Both the position numbers and the translations under genes were made by a program. Positions 12,901 to 31,900 of a stretch of DNA of 64,000 nucleotides are shown here, in pieces. Position 1 is the first letter of the stretch, and every line of letters starts with the position of its first letter. Under the pieces are notes generated by a model. It saw only the letters and a list, made by a program, of their open reading frames with translations. It was not told the origin of the DNA and did not search any database. The stretch comes from an uncultured Acidobacteriota bacterium (GTDB lineage Bacteria; Acidobacteriota; Vicinamibacteria; Vicinamibacterales; Fen-181): positions 559,956-623,955 of the forward strand of contig CAVSGZ010000013.1 of assembly GCA_963727765.1 (NCBI GenBank), given 5' to 3'.

Positions 12901-12907
12901 GCGAGCG

Positions 12908-12971
12908 GACTACTCAGCGAAGGACCCGATCCCTCGGCGAAGGCTCCGATTCCTCAGCGTCAGTTCCGATT
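12908..12971 (+). repeat. 20-bp tandem repeat array (3 units plus a partial), orphan copy ending at an ATG
   Basis: gactactcagcgaaggaccc / gatccctcggcgaaggctcc / gattcctcagcgtcagttcc / gatt then ATG at 12972. Confidence 0.9.
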
Positions 12972-13322
12972 ATGTTGTTCCACGTCGTCCTCTTTCGTCC
13001 CCGCACCGACCTGGGCGCCGCCGACCGGGCCAGTCTCGTGGAAGCGCTGGAGGCGGCCCTGCAGCAAGTTCCGTCCATCAGGCGCTTTCACGTCGGGCGC
13101 CGCGTGACGCACGGCGCCGGGTACGAGTCTGCCGTGCCGGCGCCGCTCGATTACGCGGCCATCATCGAGTTCGACGACCTGCCCGCGCTCCAGGCGTATC
13201 TCGGCCATCCGGCGCACGTGGCGCTCGGCCAGCGCTTCATGCGCTCGCTGGAAGCGTCGGCCATCTTCGATTACCAGATGCAGGACGTGGAGGAACTCCG
13301 TCGGCTCGCGCAGTCGGAGTGA
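12972..13322 (+). CDS. Dabb family (stress-responsive A/B barrel) protein
   Basis: HVVLF...VPSIRRFHVGR...IEFDDLPALQAYLGHPAH...IFDY pattern. Confidence 0.85.
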   Translation: MLFHVVLFRPRTDLGAADRASLVEALEAALQQVPSIRRFHVGRRVTHGAGYESAVPAPLDYAAIIEFDDLPALQAYLGHPAHVALGQRFMRSLEASAIFDYQMQDVEELRRLAQSE

Positions 13323-13335
13323 TCGGGGGACTTCC

Positions 13336-13587
13336 CTACCTGTCGTCGTGATTCTGGGCCCGCGCCACGGCGATGTCGATCGCCTCCAGGTTCGGGGCCG
13401 GCCGGGTCTTGCCCGCCGTGCCGTCGGCGCGCGCCGAGGCCGAACTCACCGTCCCCCATCCGCGCCAGCCGCACGCATGGCAGCGGTGGAGCCTCCGGTG
13501 GGTGAAGCCCTTGCGCATGCGCTCCCAGAAGTTCCGGCTTCGGGATCGGTGGATTCTCGGAGAGCCGCATTTCGGACAAGTGAGCAC
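13336..13587 (-). CDS. Small zinc-ribbon protein
   Basis: CPKCGS...IHRSRSRNFWER...HRCHACGWRGW (two CxxC). Confidence 0.7.
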   Translation of the reverse strand: MLTCPKCGSPRIHRSRSRNFWERMRKGFTHRRLHRCHACGWRGWGTVSSASARADGTAGKTRPAPNLEAIDIAVARAQNHDDR

Positions 13588-13674
13588 GAAACCTACCCTC
13601 GCAAGACGGCGCCCTGCGCGCCCGTCGGCCCTGGACGACGTCGGACCCGCTCGGGGGGAATCATAGCACTGGTG

Positions 13675-14034
13675 TCAGTCCGCCGGTCCATTGCCGGCCC
13701 CGTCATCGCCGGCCTCGCCGCCGCCACCCATCTCCTCTTCGATCGCCTGATCGAGATCCTCGCCGAAGTCCTCTCCCATCTCCCGCCCCATCTTCTTCAT
13801 GAGGCGGGCGACGCTCCTGGGATCGTTCTCGTCGATGTCGCCCATCGCCGACGGGTCGGCCAGCGACTCGAGGCGGGCGTCCTCGGACTTCGGTGATGCG
13901 AAGCGGGAGTAGAGTTTCTCGAGATCGGCGCCCCCGCACGCGCGGCAGCGCACCTCCGCGACCCGCGCTCTCGACAGGACGAGCGCCGTCGTCTTCATGT
14001 GGCAGCGTCGGCATTCGAACTCGTAGATCGGCAT
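13675..14034 (-). CDS. FmdB-family zinc ribbon protein
   Basis: MPIYEFECRRC...CRACGG...KLYSRFA. Confidence 0.85.
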   Translation of the reverse strand: MPIYEFECRRCHMKTTALVLSRARVAEVRCRACGGADLEKLYSRFASPKSEDARLESLADPSAMGDIDENDPRSVARLMKKMGREMGEDFGEDLDQAIEEEMGGGGEAGDDGAGNGPAD

Positions 14035-14046
14035 GGCGCTTGGCTC

Positions 14047-14788
14047 TCAGGATCCGATGAAGCGCTTGATCCGCGCCAGCAGGCCGTCCCGGCCCGGCCC
14101 CGCCGCAGACAGCAGATCGAGACAGGCTCCAATGCCGGCCACCGGCTCGATGCCGAGCCGCTGCGCGTTGGGCGGGATGTCCGCGAAGTCGCCACCCCAC
14201 ACCAGGATCGCACGAGCCCTGGACTCGAGCTTGACGTCGAGGCAGTTCTCCGGCCGGTCGTCGACGACGATGTCGAGCGAGAGGGCGGCGGCGACCTTGC
14301 CGCGCGAGCCCTTGATGACGAAGACACTGGGAAGGTCGAACCCGTGGGCCACCAGCCACCGCTGCGTCTGAATCTGAGTCATGTCCCCGCCGCTCGACGG
14401 CCGCTGCGTGATGAAGATCACTTCCCACTGCCGCTCCACGGCCAGCGTCGCAAGGCGGGCCACGGCGCCTGGCTCGGTCTCGGGAAGCGACTCCCAGAAG
14501 TTCCTCGTGCTCCGCACCGTCTCCCAGAATCTCGTGCTGCTGGTGCCGGGTGAGCGCACGGAACCGCGCCGGCTCGACCAGGACCTCCTCCGCTGTCGGC
14601 TGGTCATCCGGGGCGGGAGCGCTCGCATCGGCCCCGGCCGCGTCGGACGGGCCCCGGGCCCCCTCTTGCTGCGCCGGCTCCGGCTTCTCCTTCGGCGCCT
14701 CTCCAAACAGGCGCACGGCAATCTCTGCGAGGGCAGAGTCGAGATCGGCGATGACGCCATCGCAGTCGAACGCGATCCTGAGTGACAT
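14047..14788 (-). CDS. HAD-superfamily 5'(3')-nucleotidase-like protein; apparent +1 frameshift near 14528
   Basis: N-terminus RIAFDCDGVIAD in one frame; FWESL...VIFITQR...DIVVDDRPENC in another; removing one base of the minus-strand TT joins them. Confidence 0.75.
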
Positions 14789-14890
14789 GGAAAGTCCTGG
14801 GTTGGCCCGGTCCGCGGCCCGACACGCCGTGCCATGATAGCACCGCCGTCGGCGACGGCCGAAGCGCGGGTTCCGTGGCGGACGGGCTGG

Positions 14891-15958
14891 CTACGAAAAA
14901 TGCCGTGCAATCTCCCCGCGCAGCCCCGCGATCGAATCGACGTGGTTCACGGCGACGCGCAGGCGGGAGCCGCCGGGCAGACCCCTGGTGTACCAGGTGC
15001 ACAGCGCCCTGAGCTTGTTGATCACCCAGCGCTCGCGGCCGTGTGCCGGGTTCGCGTCGCGGGGTTCCCCGGCGGACTTGCGGTCGGCGTCCTCTTCCGG
15101 TCCGGTGGTGGCGGCGTCCGCCCCGTTGGCGACGTGGCGGAAGCCGGGTGATTCATCGGCCGGATCGGCGAGCAGCAAATCGATGTAGTCGAGCAGGAAG
15201 CGTCGCCGCTCGGCGGGCGTGATGGCCTGGATCGGGCGGTTCGCGGCACAGGAGGTCGCCTGGGCGAAGATCCACGGGTTGCGCAGTGCGCCGCGGCCGA
15301 CGAGCACGCCGGCCACGCCGGTTTCCTCCATCCGTCGCACCAGGTCTTCCGGCTCGACGCAGTCGCCGTTGCCCAGCACCGGGATCGACACCGCCCGCGC
15401 CACGCGCCCGATGAGCTCCCAGTCGGCGCGTCCGCTGTAGGCCTGTGCGGCAGTCCGCCCGTGCACTGTGATGGCTGATGCCCCGGCGTGTTCCAGTCGC
15501 CGCGCCAGCTCGGGCGCGTTCGTCTCGCGGTCGTCCCAGCCGGTGCGCATCTTCACTGTCACCGGGATCGAGACCGCCCGCGCCATCGCCTGTACGATCG
15601 CCGCCGCCCGTTCCGGATCGCGCATCAGGCTGCAGCCGGCGCGGTTCCTGGCGACTTTCGGCACCGGGCAGCCCATGTTGATGTCGACGGCATCGGCGCC
15701 GATCCGCTCGACAACCTGCGCCGCCACCGCCATCTTCCCGGGATCGCCGCCGAAGATCTGGACGGCGACCGGGCGCTCTTCCTCGGTGAACTCGGCGTAC
15801 TCGAGCGTCCGGTCGATCCCGCGCACGAGGCCCTCGCTGCTGACCATCTCGGTCACGACGAGGCCGCAGCCGCCGTGGCGCTTGACCAGGCGCCGGAACG
15901 CCGTGTCGGTCAGGCCGGCCATTGGGGCGAGGCCGAAGGGGGAAGACAGGGGGATCAC
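14891..15958 (-). CDS. dusB: tRNA-dihydrouridine synthase (DusB family)
   Basis: LAPMAGLTD, TEMVS, DINMGCPVPKV, VTVKMRTGW, VHGRT, GNGD, GRGALRNPWIF. Confidence 0.92.
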   Translation of the reverse strand: MIPLSSPFGLAPMAGLTDTAFRRLVKRHGGCGLVVTEMVSSEGLVRGIDRTLEYAEFTEEERPVAVQIFGGDPGKMAVAAQVVERIGADAVDINMGCPVPKVARNRAGCSLMRDPERAAAIVQAMARAVSIPVTVKMRTGWDDRETNAPELARRLEHAGASAITVHGRTAAQAYSGRADWELIGRVARAVSIPVLGNGDCVEPEDLVRRMEETGVAGVLVGRGALRNPWIFAQATSCAANRPIQAITPAERRRFLLDYIDLLLADPADESPGFRHVANGADAATTGPEEDADRKSAGEPRDANPAHGRERWVINKLRALCTWYTRGLPGGSRLRVAVNHVDSIAGLRGEIARHFS

Positions 15959-15959
15959 G

Positions 15960-16080
15960 GTAGTCGGTTACTTCGCAGAGTAGTCGGGTGTTTCACTGAG
16001 CGATCGGGGGCTTCGCAGAGTAGTCGGGGGCTTTGCTGAGTGATCGGTTGCTTCGCTGAATAGTTGGTTGGCTCGCCAAG
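15960..16080 (-). repeat. 20-bp tandem repeat array (about 6 units), downstream arm of the four-helix cassette
   Basis: Plus strand tagtcggttacttcgcagag / tagtcgggtgtttcactgag / cgatcgggggcttcgcagag / tagtcgggggctttgctgag...; reverse complement of the 16559-16783 family. Confidence 0.9.
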
Positions 16081-16103
16081 GAAATGACTCTCGCGTCAAG
16101 TCG

Positions 16104-16517
16104 TCAACTGCCCTGATGAGCTCTCGGCCATGGTGCCTGTCGTCTGTCCCTTCGGTCCGATCGGAGCAGGTAGTTGATGAGGCCAGAGAGCATGCGGAGA
16201 ATCTCCGCTCCGTCTCTGCCCAGCCTCTCGGCGTCCCCAACTGAGAGGCGGCCTCTCACGTGTGCCACCAACACGTGCGCCCTCGCTTCGGCGCACGATC
16301 CTCGCGCGATGCACAGGTAACGCGCGAAACCCCGATCCGTCCCCTGTTCAAACCCCTCCGACAGGTTCGCCAGGATGGAGTCTGCGCACGCGTCGATCTG
16401 CTCGCGGAGACGTTGGTCCTGCGACAGGCCCCCGCGGCGCACGACGGCAGAAAGCGCCTCGACAAACCGCCGCGCGGCTTGCCAAACCTGCAATTCCTCT
16501 ACTGAATTGACCTGCAT
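16104..16517 (-). CDS. Four helix bundle protein (TIGR02436 / 23S rRNA IVS protein family)
   Basis: SVEELQVWQ...LREQIDACADSILANLSEGFEQ...FARYLCIARGSCAE family pattern. Confidence 0.88.
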   Translation of the reverse strand: MQVNSVEELQVWQAARRFVEALSAVVRRGGLSQDQRLREQIDACADSILANLSEGFEQGTDRGFARYLCIARGSCAEARAHVLVAHVRGRLSVGDAERLGRDGAEILRMLSGLINYLLRSDRRDRRQAPWPRAHQGS

Positions 16518-16529
16518 GCGCGGCAGCCG

Positions 16530-16546
16530 TGCACCGCGCGTGCCAA
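16530..16546 (-). promoter_or_regulatory. sigma54-type promoter of the four-helix gene (probably near-leaderless)
   Basis: Minus strand TTGGCACGCGCGGTGCA (GG-N10-GC); ATG starts 14 nt after the GC; no SD. Confidence 0.6.
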
Positions 16547-16558
16547 GTTGCCACTCCG

Positions 16559-16783
16559 GACTACGCAGTGAAGGGTGCGACTTCTCCGCGAAGCCCCCGA
16601 TTCCTCAGCGTCAGTTCCGACTTCTCAGCGCAGGCCCCGACTTCTCGGCGTCAGGTTCGACTACTCAGCGAAGGGTCCGAATCTCGGCGAAGGCCCCGAC
16701 TCCTCCGCGAAGCCCCCGATTCCTCAGCGTCAGTTCCGACTTCTCAGCGCAGGCCCCGACTTCTCGGCGTCAGTTCCGACTAC
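16559..16783 (+). repeat. 20-bp tandem repeat array (11 units) with a 119-bp higher-order duplication; upstream arm of the cassette
   Basis: Units such as gacttctccgcgaagccccc, gattcctcagcgtcagttcc, gacttctcagcgcaggcccc; block 16579-16658 recurs at 16698-16777. Confidence 0.95.
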
Positions 16784-17274
16784 GTCAGGTACGGCTTGAC
16801 GTCCGCGGCATCCACCGTGGTGGCCACCGCCCGGCCAATCAGCTCGACCGAGAGCACGAGCCGCGCGTGCCGGTCCTTCTTGATGAGCAGGCCGGTGACG
16901 CCCTTGAGCGGGCCGTGGATCACTTCGACGCGGGACCCTTCGTTGATGAACGGGCACGGGTCGTACTGGAGGTCGCTCGTCACGAGCCGCCGCACCGCGT
17001 CCACCTCGACGTCGGGAATCGGCGCGAGCTTGCCGTCGAAGGAGACGATGGTCGCCACCCCGGTGCAGGCGAGCACGCGCAGGGCCTCGGCCGGGTCGAA
17101 GCGGGCGAAGCAGTAGCCCGGGAACAGCGGCCAGTCGATCTGCTTGCGGCGATCTTTCCAGCGGCTCCAGCGGGGCACCGTCGGCAGGAAGACCTCGACG
17201 CCTTTCCGCACGAGTTGCTCGTGGACCGCCTTCTCGGCGCGCGATCGCGTCCAGACGGCAAACCACGGCGGCAC
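16780..17274 (-). CDS. UpxY/NusG-family transcription antiterminator paralog
   Basis: WFAVWTRSRAEKAV...RWKDRRKQIDWPLFPGYCFARF NGN domain; GSRVEVIHGPLKGVTG KOW motif; GTG start 2 nt after the upstream stop. Confidence 0.88.
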   Translation of the reverse strand: MPPWFAVWTRSRAEKAVHEQLVRKGVEVFLPTVPRWSRWKDRRKQIDWPLFPGYCFARFDPAEALRVLACTGVATIVSFDGKLAPIPDVEVDAVRRLVTSDLQYDPCPFINEGSRVEVIHGPLKGVTGLLIKKDRHARLVLSVELIGRAVATTVDAADVKPYLT

Positions 17275-17276
17275 GG

Positions 17277-18335
17277 CTATTTCTTCTCCGGCGGGGGGGC
17301 GGCGGCGACAAGCGCGTCCTCCGCGACCTTCTGCTCGAAGAGCTTCTTGAGCTCCGGGTTCTTCCAGTCGAGCACGGCCTGCGCCCGGAGCTTCTGTATG
17401 TAGCGGCTGTACTCGGCCGCCTGCTTCGTGTTGGCCACGCGGTTCCCGATGTCCTCGCGCGCCTGATCCCACGGCAGCAGCGTCGGCTCGTTGAGCGTTT
17501 CGACCTTGAAGATCTGGTAGCCGCTCTGCGTCCGGATCACCGGCGTGATCTGCCCGGCTTTGAGCGGCTCGAGGATCTTCCGCAGTGCCGGCGCGAGGTC
17601 GGTCATGTTGATCGGCCCGATCAGGCCGCCGTTGGCCTTCGAGGCGGCCGTCGAGACCTCGGCCACGGCCTTCTCGAAGCTCTCGCCGCCCTGGAGCTGC
17701 TGGGCGAGCGCGTCCGCCTTGGCTTTCGCCGTCGGGTCGTCCGCGGTCGGCGACACGGGGATCAGGATCTCGCGCAGCATCAGCGTCGCCGGCGACGTGA
17801 ACTCGGCCTTGTGCGCCTCGTAGTACGCCTTCGCCTCGGCCTCGGTGACCGAGATGTGCCCGAGCACTTCGTTGCCCTGCACTTCCTGGATGATCATCGA
17901 CTTCTCGAGGCGCGCCCGCAGCTCGGCCATCGTCATGTTCTCGTTCTTGAGGGCCTGCTGAAACTGCTCTTCGGTCTCGATCTTGTTTTCCTTCTTGATG
18001 TTGTCGATGACCTGCTTGAGCTTCTCCTCGGTCAGGTGGTAGCCCAGCTCCTTGCCGCGCTGCAGGAGGAGCAGCTCGTCGACCGCCTCCACGATGACCT
18101 GGGGCGTGATCTCGGCCAGCATCTTCGTCAGTTCCGCGTTGGTCATCGACTGCGGGTTCTCCCGCCTCGCCTTGACGACCGCCGACTGCCGCGTCTCGAG
18201 ATCGCTCTGCGTGATGATGTCGTCGTTCACCTTCACGAGGACCCGCTCGATGATCTCCGCGCGCGGCACGGCCGCGCCGAGCGTGACCAGACCGAGGAGG
18301 ACGACGAGCCCGCGAGCGAGAGGATACTTGGTCAT
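17277..18335 (-). CDS. SurA/PrsA-type peptidyl-prolyl isomerase
   Basis: Signal peptide; IIERVLVKVNDDIITQSDL SurA N-domain; parvulin domain (LREILI...GESFEKA...ANGGLIG...GQITPVIRTQSGYQIFKV). Confidence 0.88.
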   Translation of the reverse strand: MTKYPLARGLVVLLGLVTLGAAVPRAEIIERVLVKVNDDIITQSDLETRQSAVVKARRENPQSMTNAELTKMLAEITPQVIVEAVDELLLLQRGKELGYHLTEEKLKQVIDNIKKENKIETEEQFQQALKNENMTMAELRARLEKSMIIQEVQGNEVLGHISVTEAEAKAYYEAHKAEFTSPATLMLREILIPVSPTADDPTAKAKADALAQQLQGGESFEKAVAEVSTAASKANGGLIGPINMTDLAPALRKILEPLKAGQITPVIRTQSGYQIFKVETLNEPTLLPWDQAREDIGNRVANTKQAAEYSRYIQKLRAQAVLDWKNPELKKLFEQKVAEDALVAAAPPPEKK

Positions 18336-18357
18336 TACACCTCGTGAACCAGTTATC

Positions 18358-21300
18358 TTACTTCGAACCGAGAAGTTCGCTCAAGACCCGCTGAACCCGC
18401 GTGAGCACGCCGTCTGGGCTCCGCGGGTCCTCTTTTTCCGGCCGGAGGATCGCGTCTTTGCTGAACCCTGGCCGCACCACGTCCTCGGTCGCGCGGGCGG
18501 TCCACCACGACCGGGCGGTCGGACCAAGCCGCCCGGGCACCGGGCGCTGGCCGGGGCGCGGCCTTCCCGCCGGCGCCGCGCTGGCCGGCGTGCGGCTGAC
18601 CAGGCCTGACCGGTTCGGGCCCGTGAGCGCCCTCGCCGGCGTCCAGTTCAGGTCGAGCTTCAAGCTCGACGGCGGCGCGAGCGAAACCTCCGGGTGGTCC
18701 CCGACCAGCCGGAGGACGCGCTGCGGGTCTGGCCCCCCCTGGCCCTTGAACGTAAAGACGACGGTCGAGCCCTGACGGTCGATCGATTCGACGCCCAGGC
18801 GGTCCGCGGTGATTCGGATCCGGCCGTAGTCGATGAGGTTCAGCACCTGCTCGGGCACGGGGCCGTAGCGGTCGATCGCCTCCTCGACGATCTCCTCGAG
18901 CTCCCTCTCCTTCCGCGCGGCGGCGACCCGGCGGTAGAGCGCGAGCCGCTGGGCCTGTTCGGGTACGTAGCGGCTGTCGACGCGCAGGTCGACGTTGAGG
19001 TTGACCGTCGCGCGCGTCTCGTCCTCGATCTCCTCGCCCCTCAGCTCGCGCACCGCCTGCTCGAGCAGTTTCATGTACATCTCGAAGCCGATCGCCTCGA
19101 TGTGGCCGCTCTGCTCGCCGCCCAGCAGGTTGCCGGCCCCGCGGATCTCCAGGTCGAGCGCCGCCACGCGGAACCCGCTCCCGAGGTCCGAGAACTCGCG
19201 GATGGCCGCCAGGCGCTTGCGGGCGACGGGCGACAGCGTGTTCCCCGGCGGGACCAGCAGGTAGGCGTAGGCCGGCCGGTCCGATCGCCCGACGCGCCCG
19301 CGCAGCTGGTAGAGCTGCGAGAGGCCGTAGCGGTCGGCCCGGTTGATCAGGATCGTGTTGACGTTCGGAATGTCGAGGCCATTCTCGACAATGGTGGTGG
19401 CCAGCAGGACGTCGAACTTGCGCGCGACGAAATCCACCATCGCGCGCTCGAGCGCCTCCTCGCCCATCTGGCCGTGGCCGACGACCACCCTCGCCTCCGG
19501 CACCAGCCGCGTCAGCAGGTTGCCGATCGAGTAAATCGACTCGACCCGGTTGTGGACGAAGTAGACCTGCCCGCCCCGCGCCAGCTCGCTCCGGACCACG
19601 CGCGCGATGAGCGGCTGGTCGAAGCGCACGACGTTGGTCTGGATGGCGAGGCGGTCCTTGGGCGGCGTCTCGATCACCGACATGTCGCGGATGCCGACCA
19701 TCGACATGTTGAGCGTCCTCGGGATCGGCGTCGCGGTCATCGTCAGCACGTCGACGCGCCGGCGCAGATGCTTGATGCGCTCCTTGTGGGCGACGCCGAA
19801 GCGCTGCTCCTCGTCGACCACCAGCAGGCCGAGGTCCTTGAAGACGACGTCTTTCGACAGCAGGCGGTGCGTCCCGACGATGACGTCCACGCGGCCGTCG
19901 GCGAGGTCGGCGAGCGCCTGCTTGATCTCCCCTCGCGTGCGGAACCGGCTCACCATGACGATGCGGATCGGGAAGCCGGCGAATCGCTCCCGCAGCGTCT
20001 TGAGGTGCTGGAAGGCGAGCACGGTGGTCGGCGCCAGAATCGCCACTTGCTTGCCGTCCATCACCACCTTGAATGCCGCCCGCATCGCCACCTCGGTCTT
20101 CCCGTAGCCGACGTCGCCACACAGCAGTCGATCCATCGGCGTGGGCGACTCCATGTCAGCCTTGATGTCGGCGATGGCCGCCCGCTGATCGACGGTCAAC
20201 TCGTAGGGGAACGCCCCCTCGAATTCCTCCTGCCAGTGCGTATCGGGCGCGAACGCGTGGCCGGCCATCGCCTTGCGCGCCGCATAGAGCTTGAGCAGCT
20301 CCTCGGCCATGTCGCGCATGGCCTTCTTGACGCGGGTTTTCGCCCGTTCCCACGTCGTGCCGCCGAGGCGATCGAGCGGCGGCCGGCTCGCGCCGGTGTA
20401 CTTCTGCAGCAGGTCGAGCCGCTCGACCGGGACGAACAGCTTGTCGTCGCCCGCGTAGCGCAGCTCCAGGAATTCCTGCGTCGTCTGGCTGTAGGGGTCG
20501 CTGGCGATCTGGCGCAGGCCGGCGAACCGCCCGATGCCGTGATCCACGTGGACGACGAAGTCGCCCGCCTTCAGGTCGCGGAAGTCTGACAGGAAGGCGC
20601 GGGCCGCCGAGCGCCGGCGCTCCGACGGCGCGCGCTCCTCCTCGAAGACATCGGTCTCGGCCACGACCTCGAGGCCGACATCCGGCAGGCGGAAGCCGCG
20701 CGAGAGGCTGCCGGTCGCCACGAGCACGGAGGCGGCGTGCGCCATCTCCCCGCGCGCCTCGGCATTCCCGCTGCTCCGGGGATCGAAGAAGACCGGCAGG
20801 GCCAGCAAATCGTAGTCGCGAAGCAGCTCGACGACGCGCTCGGCGCGGCCCGGCGTGGCGGCGACGAAGAGCACGGTCTCCGCGGCGTGGCGCGCGCGAC
20901 GCACCGCCTCGACGAAATCGCCGATGCGGCCGCGGAACTCCACGGCCGGCTGGCAGCGGACGGCCAGTTCGCCACGAGGCCGGCGGCCGGCCGCGGCTGA
21001 CGCGCCCTCCGGGCCCGCGTCAGCCGGCGCGCCGCCGCTGATCCCCAATTCATCGACGATGGTCGCCAGGTCGATCCAGGCGTCGATCTCGTCGAGCGCG
21101 TGGAAGATCCGCTCCGGTCCCGGCGCGGCCACGCCGCGCCCGGTGACGTCCCGCCAGCTCGCCGCGTACTGCTCGAGCGCCCGTTCCGCGCGCGCGTGGA
21201 CCTCCTCGGCTTCGCAGACAAGCAGCAGCGGGCGCCCGACGTAGTCGAGCAGCGACGCCGAGCGGTCGCCGCCCAGGTCCAACGCGTCGGGTAACGGCGG

Positions 21301-22206
21301 CTGGTCCCCGACGTCGTCCTGTTCCTCGCCACCGGCTTCCTCGCTCGACACGTCATCGTCGTCCCACCCGGCGGAGGCTGCATCCTCGGCGGGTAGAAGC
21401 TCCCCCCCTCCGCCTGCGAAAGCGTCTCCCGTCCCTCGTCCCTCGCCCCTCGCCCCTTCGTTGCTGAACACCTCGCGCAACGGGACGATGCTGAAGCGGT
21501 CGACTTCGCCGACCGATCGCTGAGTGGCCGGGTCGAAGGCGCGAATCGACTCGACGGCGTCGCCGGCTAGGTCGAGACGAAACGGCTGGGCGCTGCCGGC
21601 AGGGAAGATGTCGATGACGCCGCCACGGATGCAGAACTCGCCGTGGGCATCCACCGGGTCCTGGCGCGTGAAGCCGGCATCGACCAGCAGCGACGCGAGC
21701 GCGTAGGGATCGACCTCGTCGCCGGTCTTCACCTCCCGCGATGCAGCCAGCAGCCGACGGGCGGCGCTCACCCTGGGCAGCAGGGCCGTTGCCGACGCGA
21801 CAATGACCCGCGCCGTGCCGGTGGCGGCGGCGTGGAGTGCGCGGGTGCGCGCGGAGAGCACGCCGAGGTGCGGCGCCAGGCCGCGGTACGGGTCGACTTC
21901 GTGCGAGGGAAACGGCAGCACCGACTGGCCAGCCGCGGCGTCCGAGAGCCCTTCGAGCGCCGCCAGGAAGAAGCGGACGTCGCCGCTCACCTGCTCGACG
22001 TCGGCGTCGGTCGGCACGACGGCGACGATGGTCGCCACGGCCGCGCCGGTTGGCGTCAGCCTGGCGTCCCGGTTCGCGGCGGCCGCGAGGAAGAGGGCCC
22101 GCGCGGACGAGGAGAGGCCCGACACGCGCGCCAGGCCAGGCCCCGCGAAACCGGCGCGCGCGATCGCGCTCCTGAGCAACGTCTGGAGGGTCAGGGACGT
22201 GGACAC
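18358..22206 (-). CDS. mfd: Transcription-repair coupling factor
   Basis: RGGVIDIFP, GDFVVHVDHGIGRF, MDRLLCGDVGYGKTEVA, DEEQRFGV, QLRGRVGRS, DLEIRGAGNLLG. Confidence 0.96.
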   Translation of the reverse strand: MSTSLTLQTLLRSAIARAGFAGPGLARVSGLSSSARALFLAAAANRDARLTPTGAAVATIVAVVPTDADVEQVSGDVRFFLAALEGLSDAAAGQSVLPFPSHEVDPYRGLAPHLGVLSARTRALHAAATGTARVIVASATALLPRVSAARRLLAASREVKTGDEVDPYALASLLVDAGFTRQDPVDAHGEFCIRGGVIDIFPAGSAQPFRLDLAGDAVESIRAFDPATQRSVGEVDRFSIVPLREVFSNEGARGEGRGTGDAFAGGGGELLPAEDAASAGWDDDDVSSEEAGGEEQDDVGDQPPLPDALDLGGDRSASLLDYVGRPLLLVCEAEEVHARAERALEQYAASWRDVTGRGVAAPGPERIFHALDEIDAWIDLATIVDELGISGGAPADAGPEGASAAAGRRPRGELAVRCQPAVEFRGRIGDFVEAVRRARHAAETVLFVAATPGRAERVVELLRDYDLLALPVFFDPRSSGNAEARGEMAHAASVLVATGSLSRGFRLPDVGLEVVAETDVFEEERAPSERRRSAARAFLSDFRDLKAGDFVVHVDHGIGRFAGLRQIASDPYSQTTQEFLELRYAGDDKLFVPVERLDLLQKYTGASRPPLDRLGGTTWERAKTRVKKAMRDMAEELLKLYAARKAMAGHAFAPDTHWQEEFEGAFPYELTVDQRAAIADIKADMESPTPMDRLLCGDVGYGKTEVAMRAAFKVVMDGKQVAILAPTTVLAFQHLKTLRERFAGFPIRIVMVSRFRTRGEIKQALADLADGRVDVIVGTHRLLSKDVVFKDLGLLVVDEEQRFGVAHKERIKHLRRRVDVLTMTATPIPRTLNMSMVGIRDMSVIETPPKDRLAIQTNVVRFDQPLIARVVRSELARGGQVYFVHNRVESIYSIGNLLTRLVPEARVVVGHGQMGEEALERAMVDFVARKFDVLLATTIVENGLDIPNVNTILINRADRYGLSQLYQLRGRVGRSDRPAYAYLLVPPGNTLSPVARKRLAAIREFSDLGSGFRVAALDLEIRGAGNLLGGEQSGHIEAIGFEMYMKLLEQAVRELRGEEIEDETRATVNLNVDLRVDSRYVPEQAQRLALYRRVAAARKERELEEIVEEAIDRYGPVPEQVLNLIDYGRIRITADRLGVESIDRQGSTVVFTFKGQGGPDPQRVLRLVGDHPEVSLAPPSSLKLDLNWTPARALTGPNRSGLVSRTPASAAPAGRPRPGQRPVPGRLGPTARSWWTARATEDVVRPGFSKDAILRPEKEDPRSPDGVLTRVQRVLSELLGSK
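21424..21458. repeat. Heptamer tandem repeat inside mfd
   Basis: gtctccc gtccctc gtccctc gcccctc gcccctt. Confidence 0.7.
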
Positions 22207-22676
22207 GACACCCGGCTCCCGATCTTCTCGATCATACTCGTCGTCGAGAATCCGGGCGCGAAGGCGATGCGCACGACCCGGCCGCCCCGGGCCTCCACGA
22301 CGTCACGGCCGATGATCCGATCGGCCGCCCAGTCGGCCCCCTTCACGAGAACGTCTGGCTGGATCTCGGAGATGGCGGCGTGCGGGTCGTCCTCGTCGAA
22401 GATGACGACGGCATCGACCGCCGACAGCGCCGACAGGACCTCGGCGCGCTCGCGCTCCGGGTAGATGGGCCGGTTCGGTCCCTTGATGGCCCGCACCGAC
22501 CTGTCGGAGTTGACCGCGACGACGAGGGCGTCGCCCTGCGCGCGGGCCTCGGCCAGGTAGCGCACGTGGCCGGGGTGCAGGAGGTCGAACACGCCGTTGG
22601 TGAAGACCACCGTCTTGCCGGAGGCCTGCAGCGCGCCGGCCCAGGCGGCGGTTTCGGGACGGGTCAGGACAGGCAT
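22191..22676 (-). CDS. rfaE2: D-glycero-beta-D-manno-heptose 1-phosphate adenylyltransferase (HldC/RfaE domain II)
   Basis: VVFTNGVFDLLHPGHVRYL, VAVNSDRSV, PDVLVKGADW, GFSTT. Confidence 0.9.
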   Translation of the reverse strand: MPVLTRPETAAWAGALQASGKTVVFTNGVFDLLHPGHVRYLAEARAQGDALVVAVNSDRSVRAIKGPNRPIYPERERAEVLSALSAVDAVVIFDEDDPHAAISEIQPDVLVKGADWAADRIIGRDVVEARGGRVVRIAFAPGFSTTSMIEKIGSRVSCPRP

Positions 22677-22690
22677 GGCGGAAGTTTCGA

Positions 22691-23497
22691 CTACACGCTC
22701 ACCACGATGACCGTGATGTTGTCGGGGCCTCCGGCGAGGTTGGCGGCGTGCACGAGCGCGTCGCACACGGTGCCGCCAGGTGCCTTCCCGGCCCGGCCCG
22801 GGAGCCCCTGCGCCAGGATGCCCGCAATCTGCGCGTCGGTGAGCACGCCGCACAGGCCGTCGCTGCAGAGCAGCAGCGCGTCGCCCGCCCGGAGCGGGGC
22901 CCAGCCGAATTCGGAGACCGGTTCGGGGCCTCCGGTCAGCGCGCGCGTGAGCAGGTTCCGCCTGGGGTGGCGCCAGGCGTCCTGCTCGCTGATGATGCCG
23001 GCGCGCAGTTGCTCCTCCACCCACGAGTGGTCGCGCGTGAGCCGGTCCAGCTGGTCCGCCCGCCAGCGGTACACGCGGCTGTCGCCGACGTGGCCAATCG
23101 TGGCGCCGCCGACCGGCTCGCGCACGCCCGCCGTGTCGGCCTCGAAGAGCACCGCGGCGATCGTGGTGGCCATGCTGGCGCGCCCGCGCGTGCCGGCGCC
23201 CTCGGCTCGAAGGCGCAGGTTGGCCTGGTGCAGCGCCCAGTTGAGGCGGTTGCCATCGATGCCGAGCGACGCCTGGTAGTCGAACGGCCACGGGGTGCGC
23301 TCGGTCCAGCCGCGCGTCTGCTCGATCGCCTGCTCGACCGCGTCGATGGCGGCGCGCGAGGCGACCTCGCCGGCGTCGTGGCCGCCGACGCCGTCGGCGA
23401 CCGCGAACAGCCCGAGGTCCGGGCGCGCGCAGTAGCTGTCTTCGTTGATCTCCCGGCGGACGCCGGCGTGCGTGGTGGCGCAGAAGGACAGCGGCAT
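22691..23497 (-). CDS. PP2C-family Ser/Thr protein phosphatase (Stp1/PrpC type)
   Basis: THAGVRREINED, AVADGVGGHDAGEVAS, HVGDSRVY, TRDHS, LCSDGL, GGPDNITVI. Confidence 0.92.
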   Translation of the reverse strand: MPLSFCATTHAGVRREINEDSYCARPDLGLFAVADGVGGHDAGEVASRAAIDAVEQAIEQTRGWTERTPWPFDYQASLGIDGNRLNWALHQANLRLRAEGAGTRGRASMATTIAAVLFEADTAGVREPVGGATIGHVGDSRVYRWRADQLDRLTRDHSWVEEQLRAGIISEQDAWRHPRRNLLTRALTGGPEPVSEFGWAPLRAGDALLLCSDGLCGVLTDAQIAGILAQGLPGRAGKAPGGTVCDALVHAANLAGGPDNITVIVVSV

Positions 23498-23508
23498 GGC
23501 CCGCCTGC

Positions 23509-23931
23509 CTATCCTCGGGTGCGGGCCCGACCCGCCACGTTCAGCCGTGTCAGGGCTTTCATCAGGGCGACGCGGGCTCGCTCGAGGTCCTGGTCCCGCT
23601 GGCGCGAGGCCAGCCGCTGCTCGGCCCGCTGACGCGCCGCCTGCGCGCGGTCCACGTCGATCTCCTCGGCGCGCTCGGCGATCTGCGCGAGGATGACCAC
23701 CCGGTCGGGCAGCACCTCGGCCAGGCCGAACGCCACTGAGAGATAGAACTTCTCGATCCCCTTCCGGTACCACAGCTGGCCGACCTGCAGCATCGAGAGC
23801 AGCGGGGTGTGGCCCGGCAGCACGCCGAAGTAGCCTTCGGTGCCCGGCACCTGGACCTCGTCCACCTGGTCGTGGACGATGGCCCGGTCCGGCGTGACGA
23901 TCTCGAGGGCGAGATGCGCGGGGAGTGCCAT
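23509..23931 (-). CDS. atpC: ATP synthase F1 epsilon subunit
   Basis: LEIVTPDR...PGTEGYFGVLPGHTP...AEEIDVDRA. Confidence 0.95.
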   Translation of the reverse strand: MALPAHLALEIVTPDRAIVHDQVDEVQVPGTEGYFGVLPGHTPLLSMLQVGQLWYRKGIEKFYLSVAFGLAEVLPDRVVILAQIAERAEEIDVDRAQAARQRAEQRLASRQRDQDLERARVALMKALTRLNVAGRARTRG

Positions 23932-23934
23932 GGC

Positions 23935-26261
<2,327 letters not shown>

Positions 26262-26285
26262 TGGGCGTCTTCGGCTCCCCTCCGA

Positions 26286-27809
<1,524 letters not shown>

Positions 27810-27816
27810 ATGCGAT

Positions 27817-28362
27817 TTACGTCGCGCTGGTCAACGCGTCCTTCATCTTCTCGAGCTGCCGCTTCACGCTGCCGTCGTACACCACGCTGCCGATCTTCGT
27901 CACGACGCCCCCAATGAGCGCGGCGTCGACGCGGGCGGTCATCGTCACCTGGCGGCCGGTCCGCTGCTCGATCGCGCGCCCGATCGCCTCGGCCGTGCCC
28001 GCCGGAAGCGGCACCGCGCTGGTCACCTCGGCCCGGACGACGTTCAGCAGATCGAGCAGCCGGCTTCGGTACTCCTCGAGCACCTCCGGCAGCAGGACCA
28101 GCCGGTCGCGCCCGGCCAGCAGGACGACGAGCTTCCTCACGATCGGGCCGATCTCGGCCCGCGCGGCCAGGTCTCCGACCAGGGCCACCTTGCGCTGGAC
28201 CGGGATCGACGGGTTGGCGAACACGCGCGCGAGCGGCTCGTAGCTGGCCGCGAGCGAGACGAACGCCGCGAGATCGCGCTCGACCGCCTGCGGGTCCCCC
28301 TCCGCCCGGCTCACGTCGAGCAGCGCCTTCGCATAGCGGGCGGCGGAACTGCGATTGGTCAT
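27817..28362 (-). CDS. atpH: ATP synthase F1 delta subunit
   Basis: AARYAKAL...VTSAVPL...[21 protein letters not shown]. Confidence 0.93.
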
Positions 28363-28384
28363 CCTGGTCGGCTCTCGACATCGC

Positions 28385-28453
28385 GGCGCAGGGCTGAAGC
28401 CCTGCGCTATCCCTTGTCAGTACCCGGATAGCGCAGGCCTTCAGGCCTGCGCC
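28385..28453. repeat. REP-like inverted doublet overlapping the atpF stop codon
   Basis: ggcgcagggctgaagccctgcgctatcc (28385-28412) and inverted copy ggatagcgcaggccttcaggcctgcgcc (28426-28453), each a hairpin. Confidence 0.8.
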
Positions 28454-29166
28454 CTCGGCCCGCGTCCCGTCTCTTCTCCGACCTGCGCCACGTACCGGTC
28501 GACGAGTCGCGCCTGGTCGGCGTCGGTGATCGCCTGCTTGACGCGCTCGGTGGCGACGGCGACGGCCAGTTCGCCGGCGCGCGTCTTCAGGTCGCGCTCC
28601 GCGACGCGCAGCTCGGTCTCGATCTCTCGCCTGGCCCGATCGAGCAGGCGCTGGCGCTCGGCCTCCGCCTGGACTCGGATGCGCGCCTCCTCGGCCGCGA
28701 CTTCTTCCTGGCCCCGTCGTCCGAGCGCCTCGATCTCGCCGGGCAGTGCCGTCATCCTGGCGTCGATCTCCGACATCTGCAGGCCGGCCTCCGCCTTGAG
28801 TTCCGCGGCCCGGCTCAGGTCGCTGCGCACCTGGATGCGGCGCTGCTCGAGATACGCCAGGAGCGGAGATCGCAGGAAATAGACCAGGCCCCCGGCCAGG
28901 ATCGCGAAGTTGAACAGCCGTCCCATGACGGCCCACACCGATTCGCCGTGCTCCGCCGCGGGCTGTTCGGCCTGCGGCGCCTGCGCTTCAGCCGCGGGCG
29001 GTGCGCCGGACTCCGGACGACTGGCGGCCACCGCCGCAACGGCCGGGCCGCAGAGCGTGCACACGACGAGGGCCACCACGGCCGCCACGCCGGCCACCCG
29101 GTGGCGTGCGGCGCGGTCGGTCGGCGTCGGGAAGATCGAGGATGGTCTGGCCGGAATGCGGGTCAA
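28441..29166 (-). CDS. atpF: ATP synthase F0 subunit b (start uncertain)
   Basis: GRLFNFAILAGGLVYFLRSPL TM segment followed by a coiled coil; position before atpH. Confidence 0.85.
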   Translation of the reverse strand: MTRIPARPSSIFPTPTDRAARHRVAGVAAVVALVVCTLCGPAVAAVAASRPESGAPPAAEAQAPQAEQPAAEHGESVWAVMGRLFNFAILAGGLVYFLRSPLLAYLEQRRIQVRSDLSRAAELKAEAGLQMSEIDARMTALPGEIEALGRRGQEEVAAEEARIRVQAEAERQRLLDRARREIETELRVAERDLKTRAGELAVAVATERVKQAITDADQARLVDRYVAQVGEETGRGPRAQA

Positions 29167-29170
29167 CGGG

Positions 29171-29596
29171 TCACGACACTTTCCGATCGAGCACGCGTTC
29201 GACGATGGCCTCGCCGAGAGCATTGGCCTCCTTCTCGAGCTGCGCCCGCGCCGCGCCGGCCTGCGTCTTCAGGCGCGCGCTGGCCTCGGCGACCTGGGCC
29301 TCGACCTCCTGGCGCGTCTGCGCCATCAGCGCGGCCCGCGTGTCGCCGGCCTCCCGGCGCTTCTCGTCCATCTCGCGGTAGATCTCGGCCTGCGCCGCCT
29401 TCGTGCGCCGCTCGAACTCGGCCGCCGCCTCGCGCGCCCTCTCGGCGGCCGCCTGCGCCGCGTCCCGGGCGGAGCGGATCGCCGCCTCGCGCTCCCGCAT
29501 GACGCGCCCGACCGGACGAAAGAGCCCGCGGTCGAGCACGACCACCACGAGCAGCACGATGAGGATGACCCAGAAGGTGGCGAGACCCGGCAGCAC
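29171..29596 (-). CDS. ATP synthase F0 subunit b'
   Basis: N-terminal TM, LFRPVGRVMRERE, long coiled coil, ends IVERVLDRKVS; GGAGG upstream. Confidence 0.85.
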   Translation of the reverse strand: MLPGLATFWVILIVLLVVVVLDRGLFRPVGRVMREREAAIRSARDAAQAAAERAREAAAEFERRTKAAQAEIYREMDEKRREAGDTRAALMAQTRQEVEAQVAEASARLKTQAGAARAQLEKEANALGEAIVERVLDRKVS

Positions 29597-29723
29597 CTGC
29601 GAGCACCTCCGTCCCGGACACGGCTTCGAGGCCGCGCCACGGGATCACCAGGATCCTGCGAGAGCCGAACAACGGGAAAACATTAACTTATACCACGACT
29701 TCCGAGCGGAATGGAACTCTCCT

Positions 29724-30758
29724 CTATCGCAGTTCGATGTCCGCGCCGGACGCGACGCGCGCGACACCGATGCGCGCCGCGGCGACGCCGGCCGCCGCGA
29801 ATGCCGCGGCCGCAGCGCCGGCCGCCGCCGGGTCCACGGCGGCCAGGAGGCCGCCCGAGGTCTGCGGATCGAAGAGGAGCGAGCGCGTCGCGGGATCCGT
29901 GCCGTCCAGCCCGCGCACGCCCTGGGCGAAGTACTGCTCGTTGGTCTTCATGCCGCCGGAGCGGTTGGCGGAGAGCTCGAGCGCCCCGCGGATGAGCGGG
30001 ATCGCGGCCACGTCCAGCGCGAGCGTCAGGCCGCTGCCCTGCGCCATCTCCGTCGCGTGGCCGAGCAGGCCGAACCCGGTGATGTCGGTGCAGGCGTGGA
30101 CGCTGCCGGGCGGCAGCGTCAGCAGGGCGCCTGCGGCCGCGCGGTTCAGCTCGAGCATCACCTCGATGGCGGCGTCCGCCGTGTCCGGCGCGGCGCGCTC
30201 GAACTTGATCGCCGTGGCGATGACGCCGGTGCCGATCGGCTTGGTCAGGAAGAGGACGTCTCCCGGCCGCGCGCCGGAGTTCCGCCAGACGGCGTCGGGG
30301 GAGACGACGCCGGTGACGGCGTAGCCGAACTTGATCTCGGGGTCCTGGACCGTGTGCCCGCCGAGCAGCGCCACGCCGGCCTCGCGCAGCTTGTGGAGGC
30401 CGCCAAGAAAGATCTCGCGGATGGTGGTCTCGTCGATCTCGTCTTTCGGGAAGCCGGCGATGGCCAGCGCGGTCAGCGGCCGGCCGCCCATGGCGTAGAC
30501 GTCGCTGAGCGCGTTGGCGGCGGCGATGGCGCCGTAGGTGGCGGGGTCGTCGACGACGGGGGTGAAGAAGTCGACGGTCTGGACCAGGGCGGCTCCCTCG
30601 TCCCACCGGTACACACCGGCATCGTCCGCGGTCCTGAAATCGACCAGGATGCGGTCGTCGCGCTGCGGCGGAATGTGGCCCAGGACCTGGGCCAGCTCGC
30701 CCGCGGCGAGCTTGCTGGCTCAACCCGAGCAGCTGGTCATCTGGGTCAGGCGTTTCAT
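29724..30758 (-). CDS. selD: Selenide, water dikinase, selenoprotein form (UGA codon 13 = Sec)
   Basis: GGAGAGG SD; MKRLTQMTSCSG-TGA-ASKL in frame with DDAGVY, VQTVDFFTP, NALSDVYAMGG, TDITGFGLLGH, DPQTSGGLL. Confidence 0.93.
30676..30712 (-). promoter_or_regulatory. Putative bacterial SECIS hairpin(s)
   Basis: mRNA after the UGA: AGCUCGCC-GCG-GGCGAGCU, then UGGCCCAG-GUC-CUGGGCCA (apical G/GU about 33 nt from the UGA). Confidence 0.65.
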
Positions 30759-30963
30759 GGATCCTCTCCGGTTCACGCCTTGCGACTGACGCCCTGCGGC
30801 TCGGGGCCCGGGCCCGGAGGCTTCACGGCTCGGGCCCGCTCGCCGTCGCGTCACAATGACCACATAGTCATTAGAGTGACCCTGCGGTCACCCTGCCGAC
30901 CAAGCGGTCTTTCGTCCGAACCGACCACACACTCGAAGGCGCCGATTGACAAGCGTCCGCTCT

Positions 30964-31048
30964 GATTCCTCTGCGTCAGCGCCGATTCCTCCGCGTCAGT
31001 GCCGATTCCTCACCGTCAGCCCCGATTCCTCTGCGTCAGTTCCGACTA
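30964..31048 (+). repeat. 20-bp tandem repeat array (4 units), orphan copy supplying the parB stop
   Basis: gattcctctgcgtcagcgcc / gattcctccgcgtcagtgcc / gattcctcaccgtcagcccc / gattcctctgcgtcagttcc / gacta. Confidence 0.92.
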
Positions 31049-31900
31049 TCTGCGATTAAGGGCCTCGTAGAGCCGCTGCAGTTCGTCCTCGGACTTGAAG
31101 TCGATCTCGATGCGGCCGCCCTTCCGGGCGCGGATGATGCGGACCGGTGCACCGAGTGCGAGCCGAAGCTCCTGCTCGGCGGCGCGTGTGTGGACGTCGG
31201 CGACCGCGGCGGTCTTGGACTTGGGCGGCGCGAGCAGGCGCTTGACGAGTGTCTCGGTCTGGCGAACCGACAGTTGCCTGGTGACGACGGTGGCGGCCGT
31301 CTTGGCGATGGCGGTTTCGGACTCGAGGCCGAGCAGCGCTCTCGCGTGGCCCATCGAGAGGGCGCCCGAGGCGACCTGCTCGCGGACGGCGAGCGGGAGG
31401 CGGAGCAGGCGCAGCGTGTTGGCGATCGAGGACCGGTCCTTCCCCATCGCCTCGGCGATCTGCTCCTGCGTGAAATCGAACCCGTCGATCATCTGCCGGT
31501 AGCCGAGCGCCTCTTCGATCGGGTTCAGGTCCTTGCGCTGCAGGTTCTCGATGAGCGCCATTTGCAGGAGCCGGCTGTCCTGCCCCGATTCGACGTCCTT
31601 CACGATGACCGGAACTTTGAGCAGGCCGGCGTGCTGGGCCGCGCGCCATCGTCGCTCGCCCGCGATGATCTGGAAGCCCGAGCCGTCGTGCCGGACGAGG
31701 ATCGGCTGGATGATGCCGTTGGCGCGGATCGACCGCGCGAGTTCCTCGATGTCGGCCCGTTCGACGTGCGCTCGCGGCTGGAACCGGTTGGGGGACAACC
31801 GGTCGATGTCGATCTCGAGCAGTGCGTTGCGCGGCTCGGGCGGCGCATCCGGGATGAGGGCGCTCAGGCCTTTGCCGAGCGCTGGGCGTTTCTCTGCCAT
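31046..31900 (-). CDS. parB: Chromosome partitioning protein ParB/Spo0J
   Basis: ALGKGLSALI, PNRFQPR, IIAGERRWRAA, ALIENLQRKDLNPIEEA. Confidence 0.96.
   Translation of the reverse strand: MAEKRPALGKGLSALIPDAPPEPRNALLEIDIDRLSPNRFQPRAHVERADIEELARSIRANGIIQPILVRHDGSGFQIIAGERRWRAAQHAGLLKVPVIVKDVESGQDSRLLQMALIENLQRKDLNPIEEALGYRQMIDGFDFTQEQIAEAMGKDRSSIANTLRLLRLPLAVREQVASGALSMGHARALLGLESETAIAKTAATVVTRQLSVRQTETLVKRLLAPPKSKTAAVADVHTRAAEQELRLALGAPVRIIRARKGGRIEIDFKSEDELQRLYEALNRR

Follow-up and report, generated by a model that had tools for sequence, protein, structure and literature searches.

Tagged ends of 20-nucleotide repeat arrays meet stop codons in an uncultured Vicinamibacterales bacterium

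Four arrays at gene junctions

The window analyzed here is a 64,000-nt stretch of DNA from an uncultured member of the Vicinamibacterales (Acidobacteriota), G000:C13:559956-623955 (GCA_963727765.1, contig CAVSGZ010000013.1), where G000 denotes the source genome (3.71 Mb, 68% G+C, 13 contigs, 97.8% complete). It contains four arrays of a tandem repeat with a 20-nt unit, placed by Tandem Repeats Finder (TRF) at 12913-12959, 15960-16064, 16554-16769, and 30953-31039, with boundaries that are uncertain by a few bases. We call the reading CCGAYT-N14 the C sense, the ...CGTCAGTT-CCGAYT-A end of an array its head, and the opposite end its tail. The C sense lies on the plus strand in arrays A, C, and D and on the minus strand in array B. 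Arrays C and B are the arms of a cassette between upxY and dusB that encloses a gene for a 23S rRNA intervening-sequence protein/four-helix bundle (IVP). The arrays and the features around them are as follows.

12906..12971, plus strand: array A, four CCGAYT units in the C-rich sense; its head CCGATT touches the ATG of the Dabb gene
12972..13322, plus strand: Dabb-domain gene (PF07876, E 1.4e-15); its ATG contacts the head of array A
14891..15958, minus strand: dusB (TIGR00737, 318.8 bits); GTG start, 3 nt from the head of array B (CCGACTACC-GTG)
15960..16075, minus strand: array B, six units, in mRNA sense the C-rich cassette arm; its head, GTAGTCGG, occupies 15960-15967 of the plus strand
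16104..16517, minus strand: IVP gene, 137 amino acids (PF05635, E 1.1e-21; TIGR02436, 74.7 bits), in the hairpin loop
16531..16544, minus strand: sigma-54-type -24/-12 motif GGCACGCGCGGTGC; its first base lies 27 nt upstream of the IVP ATG
16554..16782, minus strand: array C, about 11 units, in mRNA sense the cassette arm that is rich in G and in stops; it opens with the upxY stop TAG (16780-16782)
16780..17472, minus strand: upxY, a UpxY-family NusG paralogue (NF033644, 108 bits against a cutoff of 100); its stop is the TAG of the array head
30921..31048, minus strand: array D, solo, G-rich sense, five to seven units, after parB; it opens with the parB stop TAG (31046-31048)
31046..31900, minus strand: parB; its stop lies inside the head of array D, at the ancestral position

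The initial annotation had described these four arrays and their four codon junctions, and all of them are exact. The TAG stops of upxY and parB are both followed by TCGGAACTGACG in the mRNA sense. The annotation had also seen no obvious Shine-Dalgarno (SD) sequence before dusB and Dabb, and indeed GGAG, GAGG, and AGGA are absent from the 30 nt upstream of both starts. Array A has no partner arm, and its tail begins 5 to 8 nt past the TAG (12898-12900) of an upstream Pro-rich open reading frame (ORF). The CCGATT-ATG junction is also present in the congener G010, and the Dabb start is conserved in G010 and in a second congener, G013. The dusB start (ATG or GTG) lies at the equivalent position in G013, G010, L011, and G014. 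Known RNA families do not match the arrays (the sole match was a sub-threshold Acido-Lenti-1 at 28387-28414), and there is no rRNA match in 12000-33500.

Position, sequence, and polarity of the array heads across the genome

Are the contacts seen in the window a rule of the genome? We scanned the whole of G000 for chains of CCGAYT at 19- to 21-nt spacing and found 45 arrays, compared with 5 in the reversed sequence that served as the control; three exact cores at 20-nt spacing occurred 37 times, compared with 0 in the built-in control. Two of the 45 arrays lie inside predicted genes and were dropped, and the other 43 were tallied. Genes were predicted with our own codon-usage caller (3,111 genes, 88% coding), for which stops are exact and starts are approximate. 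Contig C2 repeats, reversed, part of the start of C13 (C2:2166 and 7210 versus C13:9067 and 3998), probably through assembly redundancy, and this overlap counts one head-on-stop case and one mini-hairpin twice.

The initial annotation had claimed that the arrays are registered to both stops and starts, and on the stop side the genome-wide tally agrees. Among the 23 stop-facing heads, 9 overlap the stop exactly (distance d = -2), with the complement of YTA serving as the gene's stop codon (TAG or TAA); 0.21 would be expected under uniform placement, and 0 of 200,000 simulations attained nine. Twelve of the 23 lie within 5 nt of the stop. The 14 heads that are not at d = -2 have distances of -53, -42, -22, -19, -12, -12, +2, +3, +4, +15, +31, +35, +84, and +113: two genes use as their stop the TGA of AACTGA, 12 nt into the array, four run deeper before they stop, three stop 2 to 4 nt before the head, and five heads are 15 to 113 nt off. 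On the start side the claim holds for only 4 of 20 heads, which lie within 5 nt of the start codon (Dabb, 0; tsaD, 0; dusB, 3; ybaB, 5), and the rest are 15 to 222 nt away. We also tallied head positions in 400 kb each of G013 and G010 and found d = -2 in 4 of 11 and 2 of 9 arrays, respectively, counts that are not independent of ours because the sites are mostly orthologous to those of G000. The registration is real and sharper than chance.

Start-facing heads at G000:C13:272815, C4:209865, C12:269143, C12:249033, C7:306552, and C7:61467 are followed within 3 to 39 nt by a -10-like box (TAGAAT, TATACT, TACAGT, or TAGCAT), with the start codon 6 to 8 nt past the box. The short distance from box to start codon suggests leaderless mRNAs.

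The end that adjoins the neighboring gene carries a sequence tag. Its consensus is 5'-(G)TA(A/G)-TCGG-AACTGACG, and 19 of the 43 heads have the sequence CCGAYTAC (GTARTCGG when read from the opposite strand). The last core is followed by A in 29 of 43 heads versus 33 of 143 interior units, and it is preceded by CGTCAGTT in 15 of 43 heads; for interior and tail units the counts are 17 of 127 and 2 of 43 (Fisher P = 0.003). The 15-mer TARTCGGAACTGACG occurs 40 times when one mismatch is allowed and never in the control. These features mark the head as a defined terminus, not an arbitrary break. The two senses differ in what they offer a ribosome: in 3,661 nt, the G-rich sense holds 179 stop triplets versus 65 in the C-rich sense. 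Self-complementary units, with at least 6 of 7 pairs between the halves, make up 21 of 143 (3 of 2,000 shuffles reached this), and the other 122 are not self-complementary.

Five array tails (G000:C4:168760, C7:304943, C7:306512, C8:90005, and C13:392642) share a GC-rich double hairpin, CCGCCTTCGTCGC-N4-GCGACTTCGGCGG, followed by ACAAGC, and about three more copies are free of arrays. A permissive search for this hairpin returned mostly noise (73 hits versus 57 in the control), and only the five clear copies were used.

The distribution of the 20-nt family is narrow. Scans at 21-nt spacing, which report presence only, detected it in the congeners G010, G011, and G008. Among 400 further genomes sampled from the phylum, only three had matches to the three-core pattern (G394, seven matches; G218, one; G077, one). 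The 20-nt GCCGATT arrays of G394, which belongs to another family of the phylum, are not flush with stops at the five loci inspected by eye. Like these loci, several of the relatives' loci described below were judged by eye from the sequence.

The asymmetry between head and tail is clearest in the 29 solo arrays, 28 of which are flanked by genes on both sides: the head lies nearer to a gene than the tail in 26 of them, and the reverse holds for 2 (P = 1.5e-6). It bears on one explanation of the tally, that the arrays are neutral filler. Slippage repeats would expand in dispensable spacers while other DNA is trimmed, and they would end where constraint begins, at a stop, a start, a -10 box, or a parS site. 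Several observations suit this model. Unrelated repeat families occupy equivalent spacers in different lineages, about six start-facing heads stop just before -10-like boxes (TAGAAT or TATACT, 6 to 8 nt before the ATG), a hairpin in G013 fills the space between two parS sites, and there is no replication-strand bias (22 versus 21). However, filler predicts that both ends are equally constrained, and slippage is unable to consume flanking unique DNA. Because the heads differ from the tails and always break off at one phase of the unit, marked by a conserved tag, the pure filler model fails, and the pair polarity described next does not follow from it either. We consider it unlikely.

Arrays of opposite polarity within 200 nt of each other are G-rich first in 22 cases (16 heptamer pairs and 6 20-mer pairs) and C-rich first in none, and in the G-rich-first pairs both tagged ends point outward. 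Fourteen of these 22 hairpins lie between codirectional genes, five between convergent genes, and three between divergent genes. In the codirectional group the distance from the stop to the first arm is typically -2 to +5 nt, and that from the second arm to the start typically 11 to 45 nt. The C-rich arm ends 11 to 65 nt before the predicted start in 10 of 14 hairpins and 129 and 382 nt before it in two more. Three of the five convergent hairpins lie within 5 nt of both stops. The orientation of arrays relative to genes follows from the head itself, because an outward head reads G-rich and stop-rich toward an incoming gene and C-rich toward an outgoing one.

Shorter repeats behave in the same way. 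TRF finds 176 intergenic arrays with 7- to 9-nt units in G000. Among these heptamer arrays the end nearer to a gene is the 5' end of the G-rich strand in 122 versus 53 (P about 1e-7), at median distances of 7.5 and 56 nt, and ends within 10 nt of a gene are found for 70 of 105 stop-facing but only 11 of 71 start-facing ones. The 20-mers are the long-unit members of a repeat population that is general in G000. Heptamer arrays also occur in the window, at 37636-37671 and 61253-61307 (AATCCTG, GGGGATC, and others).

The upxY-dusB cassette, its relatives, and possible translational coupling

In the minimum-free-energy (MFE) fold of 15940-16800 on the minus strand, GUAGUCGG pairs with CCGACUAC and the outer units of arrays C and B are paired (MFE -418.1 kcal/mol; z -5.67 versus 20 shuffles). 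The stem proposed in the initial annotation, which would set the upxY stop beside the dusB start, is present in this fold, and its geometry is kept in the four genomes G000, G013, G010, and L011. In all four, the upxY stop lies at the base of the stem or within 2 nt of it and the dusB start follows 2 to 3 nt past it, around an interior that ranges from about 90 to 820 nt. The base carries one compensatory change, with UAGUCGG/CCGACUA in two genomes and UAAUCGG/CCGAUUA in the other two.

What fills the junction differs between relatives. G000 and L011 have a 20-mer hairpin with an IVP gene, G013 has a mini-hairpin of about 90 nt, G010 has a hairpin of 8 and 17 units, G006 has an IVP gene between heptamer arms, and G014 has three 17-nt units. 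A member of another genus (G019; locus L024, G019:C19) has an IVP gene between other heptamer arms, and this gene is broken, with an internal stop and an N-terminal part in a different frame. G018, G015, and G022 have plain spacers of 23 to 120 nt. The IVP in the window is 66% identical to that of L011, 58% to the second copy in G000, and 51% to that of G006, identities that are compatible with, but do not prove, a long residence at the upxY-dusB site.

Inverted repeat arrays surround the IVP gene at 11 of 11 relatives' loci in a related-locus search evaluated by eye. A sigma-54-type motif, GGYAY-N5-NTGC, lies 27 to 31 nt upstream of the IVP start at 13 of 16 IVP loci, compared with 52 of 20,000 random 70-nt windows, and a GGCGC variant occupies the equivalent place at two further loci. 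Because only about 13 nt separate the end of the motif from the IVP ATG, the predicted IVP mRNA would be leaderless or nearly so. G000 has three IVP genes, and 2 of the 45 arrays have an IVP gene at their locus. The second 20-mer cassette with an IVP gene (G000:C12:269143-269823) consists of a G-rich arm, a C-rich arm, the gene, and a second C-rich arm, an order in which the first arm could pair with either C-rich arm, with the gene inside or not.

A promoter of this type next to arrays with a two-turn period raises the question of whether the core repeats as a phased protein-binding site, for example, for an enhancer-binding protein of the IVP sigma-54 promoter or for a nucleoid protein. The period stays within 19 to 21 nt, a C at +12, outside the detection core, is almost invariant (139 of 143 units), and the promoter motif lies beside the arrays in those 13 of 16 IVP loci. 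However, an IVP gene accompanies only 2 of the 45 arrays, and arrays at equivalent sites in sister genomes have 7-, 8-, or 17-nt periods, with which helical phasing does not fit. Protein binding also leaves the contact with stop codons unaccounted for, and we regard it as very improbable.

The geometry of the cassette suggests a role in translation, and the initial annotation had offered coupling through the stem as one explanation of the registration. The long stem would join the upstream stop to the downstream start, a terminating ribosome would melt its base and reach the SD-less start, and selection would keep the register. The pairing of the outer units in the fold is as this model requires, and the conservation of the junction in four genomes, with a G-C to A-U compensatory change around an interior of variable length, also speaks for it. 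A second stop-hairpin-start case exists at tsaD, whose ATG is flush with a head while the upstream stop lies 19 nt inside the other arm. The dusB gene is SD-less in every genome looked at, and in G018, on our reading of the plain spacer, it appears to start 5 nt past the upxY stop, a closeness that suggests ancestral coupling. Such a role has been proposed for the hairpins of short tandemly repeated repetitive (STRR) sequences between hupS and hupL (PMC2670836).

The heads are equally flush, however, where coupling is impossible, namely, in solo arrays such as that after parB, in the five convergent hairpins, and in the 70 heptamer arrays that follow a stop. Two of the four start-flush arrays, those of Dabb and ybaB, have no partner arm, and the C-rich arms that end 11 to 65 nt before a start in 10 of the 14 codirectional hairpins leave room for ordinary initiation. 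In the hairpin after the gene for cytochrome oxidase III (coxIII) in G013, the arms are complementary in the core only, as judged by eye. An SD-less start is itself ordinary in G000, because an SD-like 4-mer precedes only 36% of the predicted genes (the figure for a control window is 16%) and 64% lack one. Coupling is not the general cause, because solo arrays, convergent gene pairs, and heptamers follow the same rule, and as an explanation of the registration we judge it improbable; at upxY-dusB it is plausible. Fusion of upxY and dusB was also considered, but the long open frames in relatives run upstream of upxY, not into dusB.

How old are the stops that the heads now provide? For ParB, Kbl, cytochrome oxidase III, and acetate-CoA ligase, the position of the last residue is shared with 4 of 4 relatives each, other genera included, and the C-terminal length of ParB is equal in 4 of 4 congeners. 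The stop written by the head therefore lies at the ancestral position in four of the five genes compared, upxY being the exception. UpxY in relatives ends directly after Y/F/M. The G000 upxY gene is two codons longer and ends on the TAG of the head because one extra C shifts its frame, and the repeat acted as a back-up stop after this frameshift. After coxIII, G013 has 17 copies of CCGATTGATCCGCCCGTCCT and G000 has 10 copies of an CCGACTACTCTGCGAAG-type unit; different units at orthologous G013 and G010 sites show that the junction is kept while the interior turns over. At the equivalent stop codons in other genera there are unrelated 7- to 8-nt repeats or none. The junctions are inherited vertically, locus by locus, and the interior changes fast in unit sequence, copy number, and even repeat family.

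Other features were noted near array D. The selD-like gene (AIRS domains; 29724-30758, minus strand) has an in-frame TGA at codon 13 (30720-30722; MKRLTQMTSCSG*ASKL) that is conserved in four congeners; its product is probably a selenocysteine-containing selenophosphate synthetase, and the ORF listing shows only the portion after the TGA. Between array D and selD (about 30760-30920) are two TGACC-N4-GGTCA-type palindromes, conserved by eye in G000, G013, G010, G014, and G006, which look like an operator. Downstream of parA are two parS-like sites 22 nt apart, 32901-32914 (GTTCCACGTGGAAC) and 32937-32950 (GTTCCACGTGAAAC), near which the contig has its GC-skew minimum; in G013 these two sites are separated by a repeat hairpin of about 1 kb.

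A proposed origin as a reiterated REP-like repeat at gene ends

We propose, with a probability of roughly 60%, that the arrays are tandemly reiterated units resembling repetitive extragenic palindromes (REPs), with one tagged end, that lie as hairpins or single arms flush with genes through seeding at gene ends and survival where the gene end is intact. The repeats occur as G-rich-first hairpins on either strand or as single surviving arms, and they would seed or insert at gene ends, as proposed for the GTAG REPs. They would persist only where the gene end stays intact, a state that the stop-bearing tag would guarantee. A gene running into a head stops on the TAR of the tag or on a TGA 10 nt further in, where relatives that lack this repeat also stop. 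Toward a gene running away from it, the C-rich sense reaches up to the start codon or the -10 box or ends a short way upstream. The orientation rule would then be a consequence of the fixed hairpin polarity, not of a translational function. This agrees in part with the other alternative in the initial annotation, that the element targets stop/start junctions: targeting fits the data and the published behavior of GTAG REPs, but an insertion mechanism, a target duplication, and a mobilizing enzyme were not found.

Several observations weigh against this proposal. Of the 23 stop-facing heads, 14 miss the d = -2 position, and among the 20 start-facing heads, 16 lie at least 15 nt from the predicted start. 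The label REP is loose because 122 of the 143 units are not palindromic. The copies are not near-identical, unlike fresh copies of miniature inverted-repeat transposable elements (MITEs) or of hairpin-forming REP pairs (REPINs), and the flavor of the unit is array specific. The one clean presence/absence case, the G013 hairpin of about 1 kb between two parS sites, is without TA ends and abuts neither a stop nor a start. A TA target duplication is not supported, as just 1 of 8 hairpin pairs carries TA on the two outer sides. A search of the 97.8%-complete genome yielded no mobilizing enzyme that matches the arrays. The proposal does not account for the strict G-rich-first polarity.

Individual routes of mobilization were examined in G000. 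The sole gene for a Y1 transposase, the kind of enzyme to which REP-associated tyrosine transposases (RAYTs) belong, lies at C5:13141-13485 (PF01797, E 4.2e-8) and is flanked by a different, 19-nt palindrome. Three copies of this palindrome, AATCACTCCCGGAGTGATT, flank the RAYT-like gene within G000:C5:12860-14320 and constitute a separate small repeat family. A TA-targeting transposase of the IS630 type (DDE_3, PF13358) has no match in G000, and a MITE with TA duplication (IS630/Tc1) was rejected on this ground, on the 1 of 8 pairs with TA at both ends, and on the unit flavors that differ between arrays. Retromobility via an Avd-like partner was discarded, as reverse transcriptase (PF00078) has no match in G000. 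A lagging- or single-strand bias is not seen (22 versus 21), and the arrays do not qualify as promoter -35 elements, because their spacing to -10-like boxes varies, as judged by eye.

In the cassette, cutting of the stem by RNase III or a hand-over of ribosomes from upxY to dusB is possible. We also considered whether the G-rich-first polarity and the stop contact are the design of a self-installing cassette. The stop-rich arm would emerge first, end translation, and be unable to load Rho, and the C-rich arm would pair with it at once. At sites of the upxY-dusB type, the terminating ribosome would melt the base of the stem and pass up to 820 nt, including a sigma-54-driven gene, to reach an SD-less start. 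If this were true, the cassette would be a bacterial counterpart of ribosome shunting. We think that this is quite improbable, and the Rho-avoidance account of the polarity is speculation.

How does our reading, a reiterated REP-like repeat seeded at gene ends, compare with known systems? Our literature search yielded no account of such 20-nt arrays, nor of such repeats in Acidobacteria. GTAG-tagged REPs are found no more than 20 bp from ORF 3' ends, their distance to downstream ORFs varies, and their termini supply TAG stops (Di Nocera et al. 2013, PMC3733652). The 20-nt arrays resemble them in the tetranucleotide tag at one end (GTAG or GTAA; degenerate GTRG and GYAG tags also count as REP tags), in the proximity to ORF 3' ends with the tag as a TAG stop, and in the predominance of tags-outside dimers, and some REP families are tandemly clustered. 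They differ in their regular head-to-tail arrays, the longest with 12 copies in G000 and 18 in G013, in having no RAYT flanked by the 20-nt repeats, and in hairpins that can contain a PF05635 gene. A REP unit is a stem-loop with a 5- to 13-bp stem and a 2- to 20-nt loop, and among the 20-nt units the 21 of 143 that are self-complementary may form one.

The GGGAATC heptamers are described as lying nearest to the 5' neighboring ORF in any orientation, with some overlapping stops, and G-quadruplexes have been suggested for them (Rehm et al. 2015, PMC4692102). For the STRR hairpins between hupS and hupL, transcript stabilization has been proposed besides translational coupling (PMC2670836). Like these cyanobacterial repeats and the GGGAATC/GGGGA(C/T)T repeats of Xanthomonas and Nostoc (PMC4692102), the 20-nt arrays are intergenic, have their G-rich strand on the coding side after stops and on the noncoding side before starts, overlap some stops, form hairpins as inverted pairs, and vary in copy number at kept sites. 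Unlike them, they have a unit of 20 nt (period, 19 to 21 nt) instead of 7, and the contact is base-exact in nine cases. The G-quadruplex explanation of the heptamers does not carry over, because most 20-nt units have no run of three or more G's.

Two further repeat classes invite comparison. Mycobacterial interspersed repetitive units (MIRUs) occupy operon junctions between a stop and a start, do little damage to the genes on either side, and carry a small in-phase ORF that overlaps the adjoining stop and start codons and is coupled to the downstream start at -4 spacing (summarized in PMC12548453). The 20-nt arrays likewise sit at stop/start junctions; unlike the MIRUs described there, their G-rich sense is closed by stops, and in the C-rich sense no stop overlaps the ATG of CCGATT-ATG. 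The TAACTGA repeats of Beggiatoaceae, Cyanobacteria, and Bacteroidetes are intergenic and stop-rich and lie a few nucleotides from starts that miss canonical ribosome-binding sites (PMC4679880). These are, however, heptamers of other phyla, mostly upstream of starts; AACTGA also occurs inside the 20-nt unit.

ORF-bearing intervening sequences of 23S rRNA occur in Leptospira, among other bacteria. The one of Coxiella burnetii has an S23p ORF and a stem that is cut by RNase III (PMC4990558). The cassette has the same build, with a PF05635 ORF within a long complementary stem, but it sits between two protein genes of an operon, the UpxY-family gene and dusB, instead of in an rRNA helix, and its stems are tandem-repeat arrays. 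It is thus an ORF-bearing 23S rRNA intervening sequence in build, sited between protein genes.

In summary, our observation is a clean 20-nt variant of a known, still unexplained repeat class, and the principle is already in print for related repeats. What makes the variant useful is its long unit, in which the register can be read base by base, and the lack of G-tracts in most units argues against the G-quadruplex explanation of the heptamers. One genome unites GTAG-tagged REPs, heptamer/STRR repeats, and rRNA intervening sequences, which belong to literatures that do not cite one another, under common rules: a tagged outer end flush with stops, the G-rich arm first, and sometimes a PF05635 gene inside. 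For annotation, the consequence is that repeat termini provide dozens of the stop codons in such genomes.

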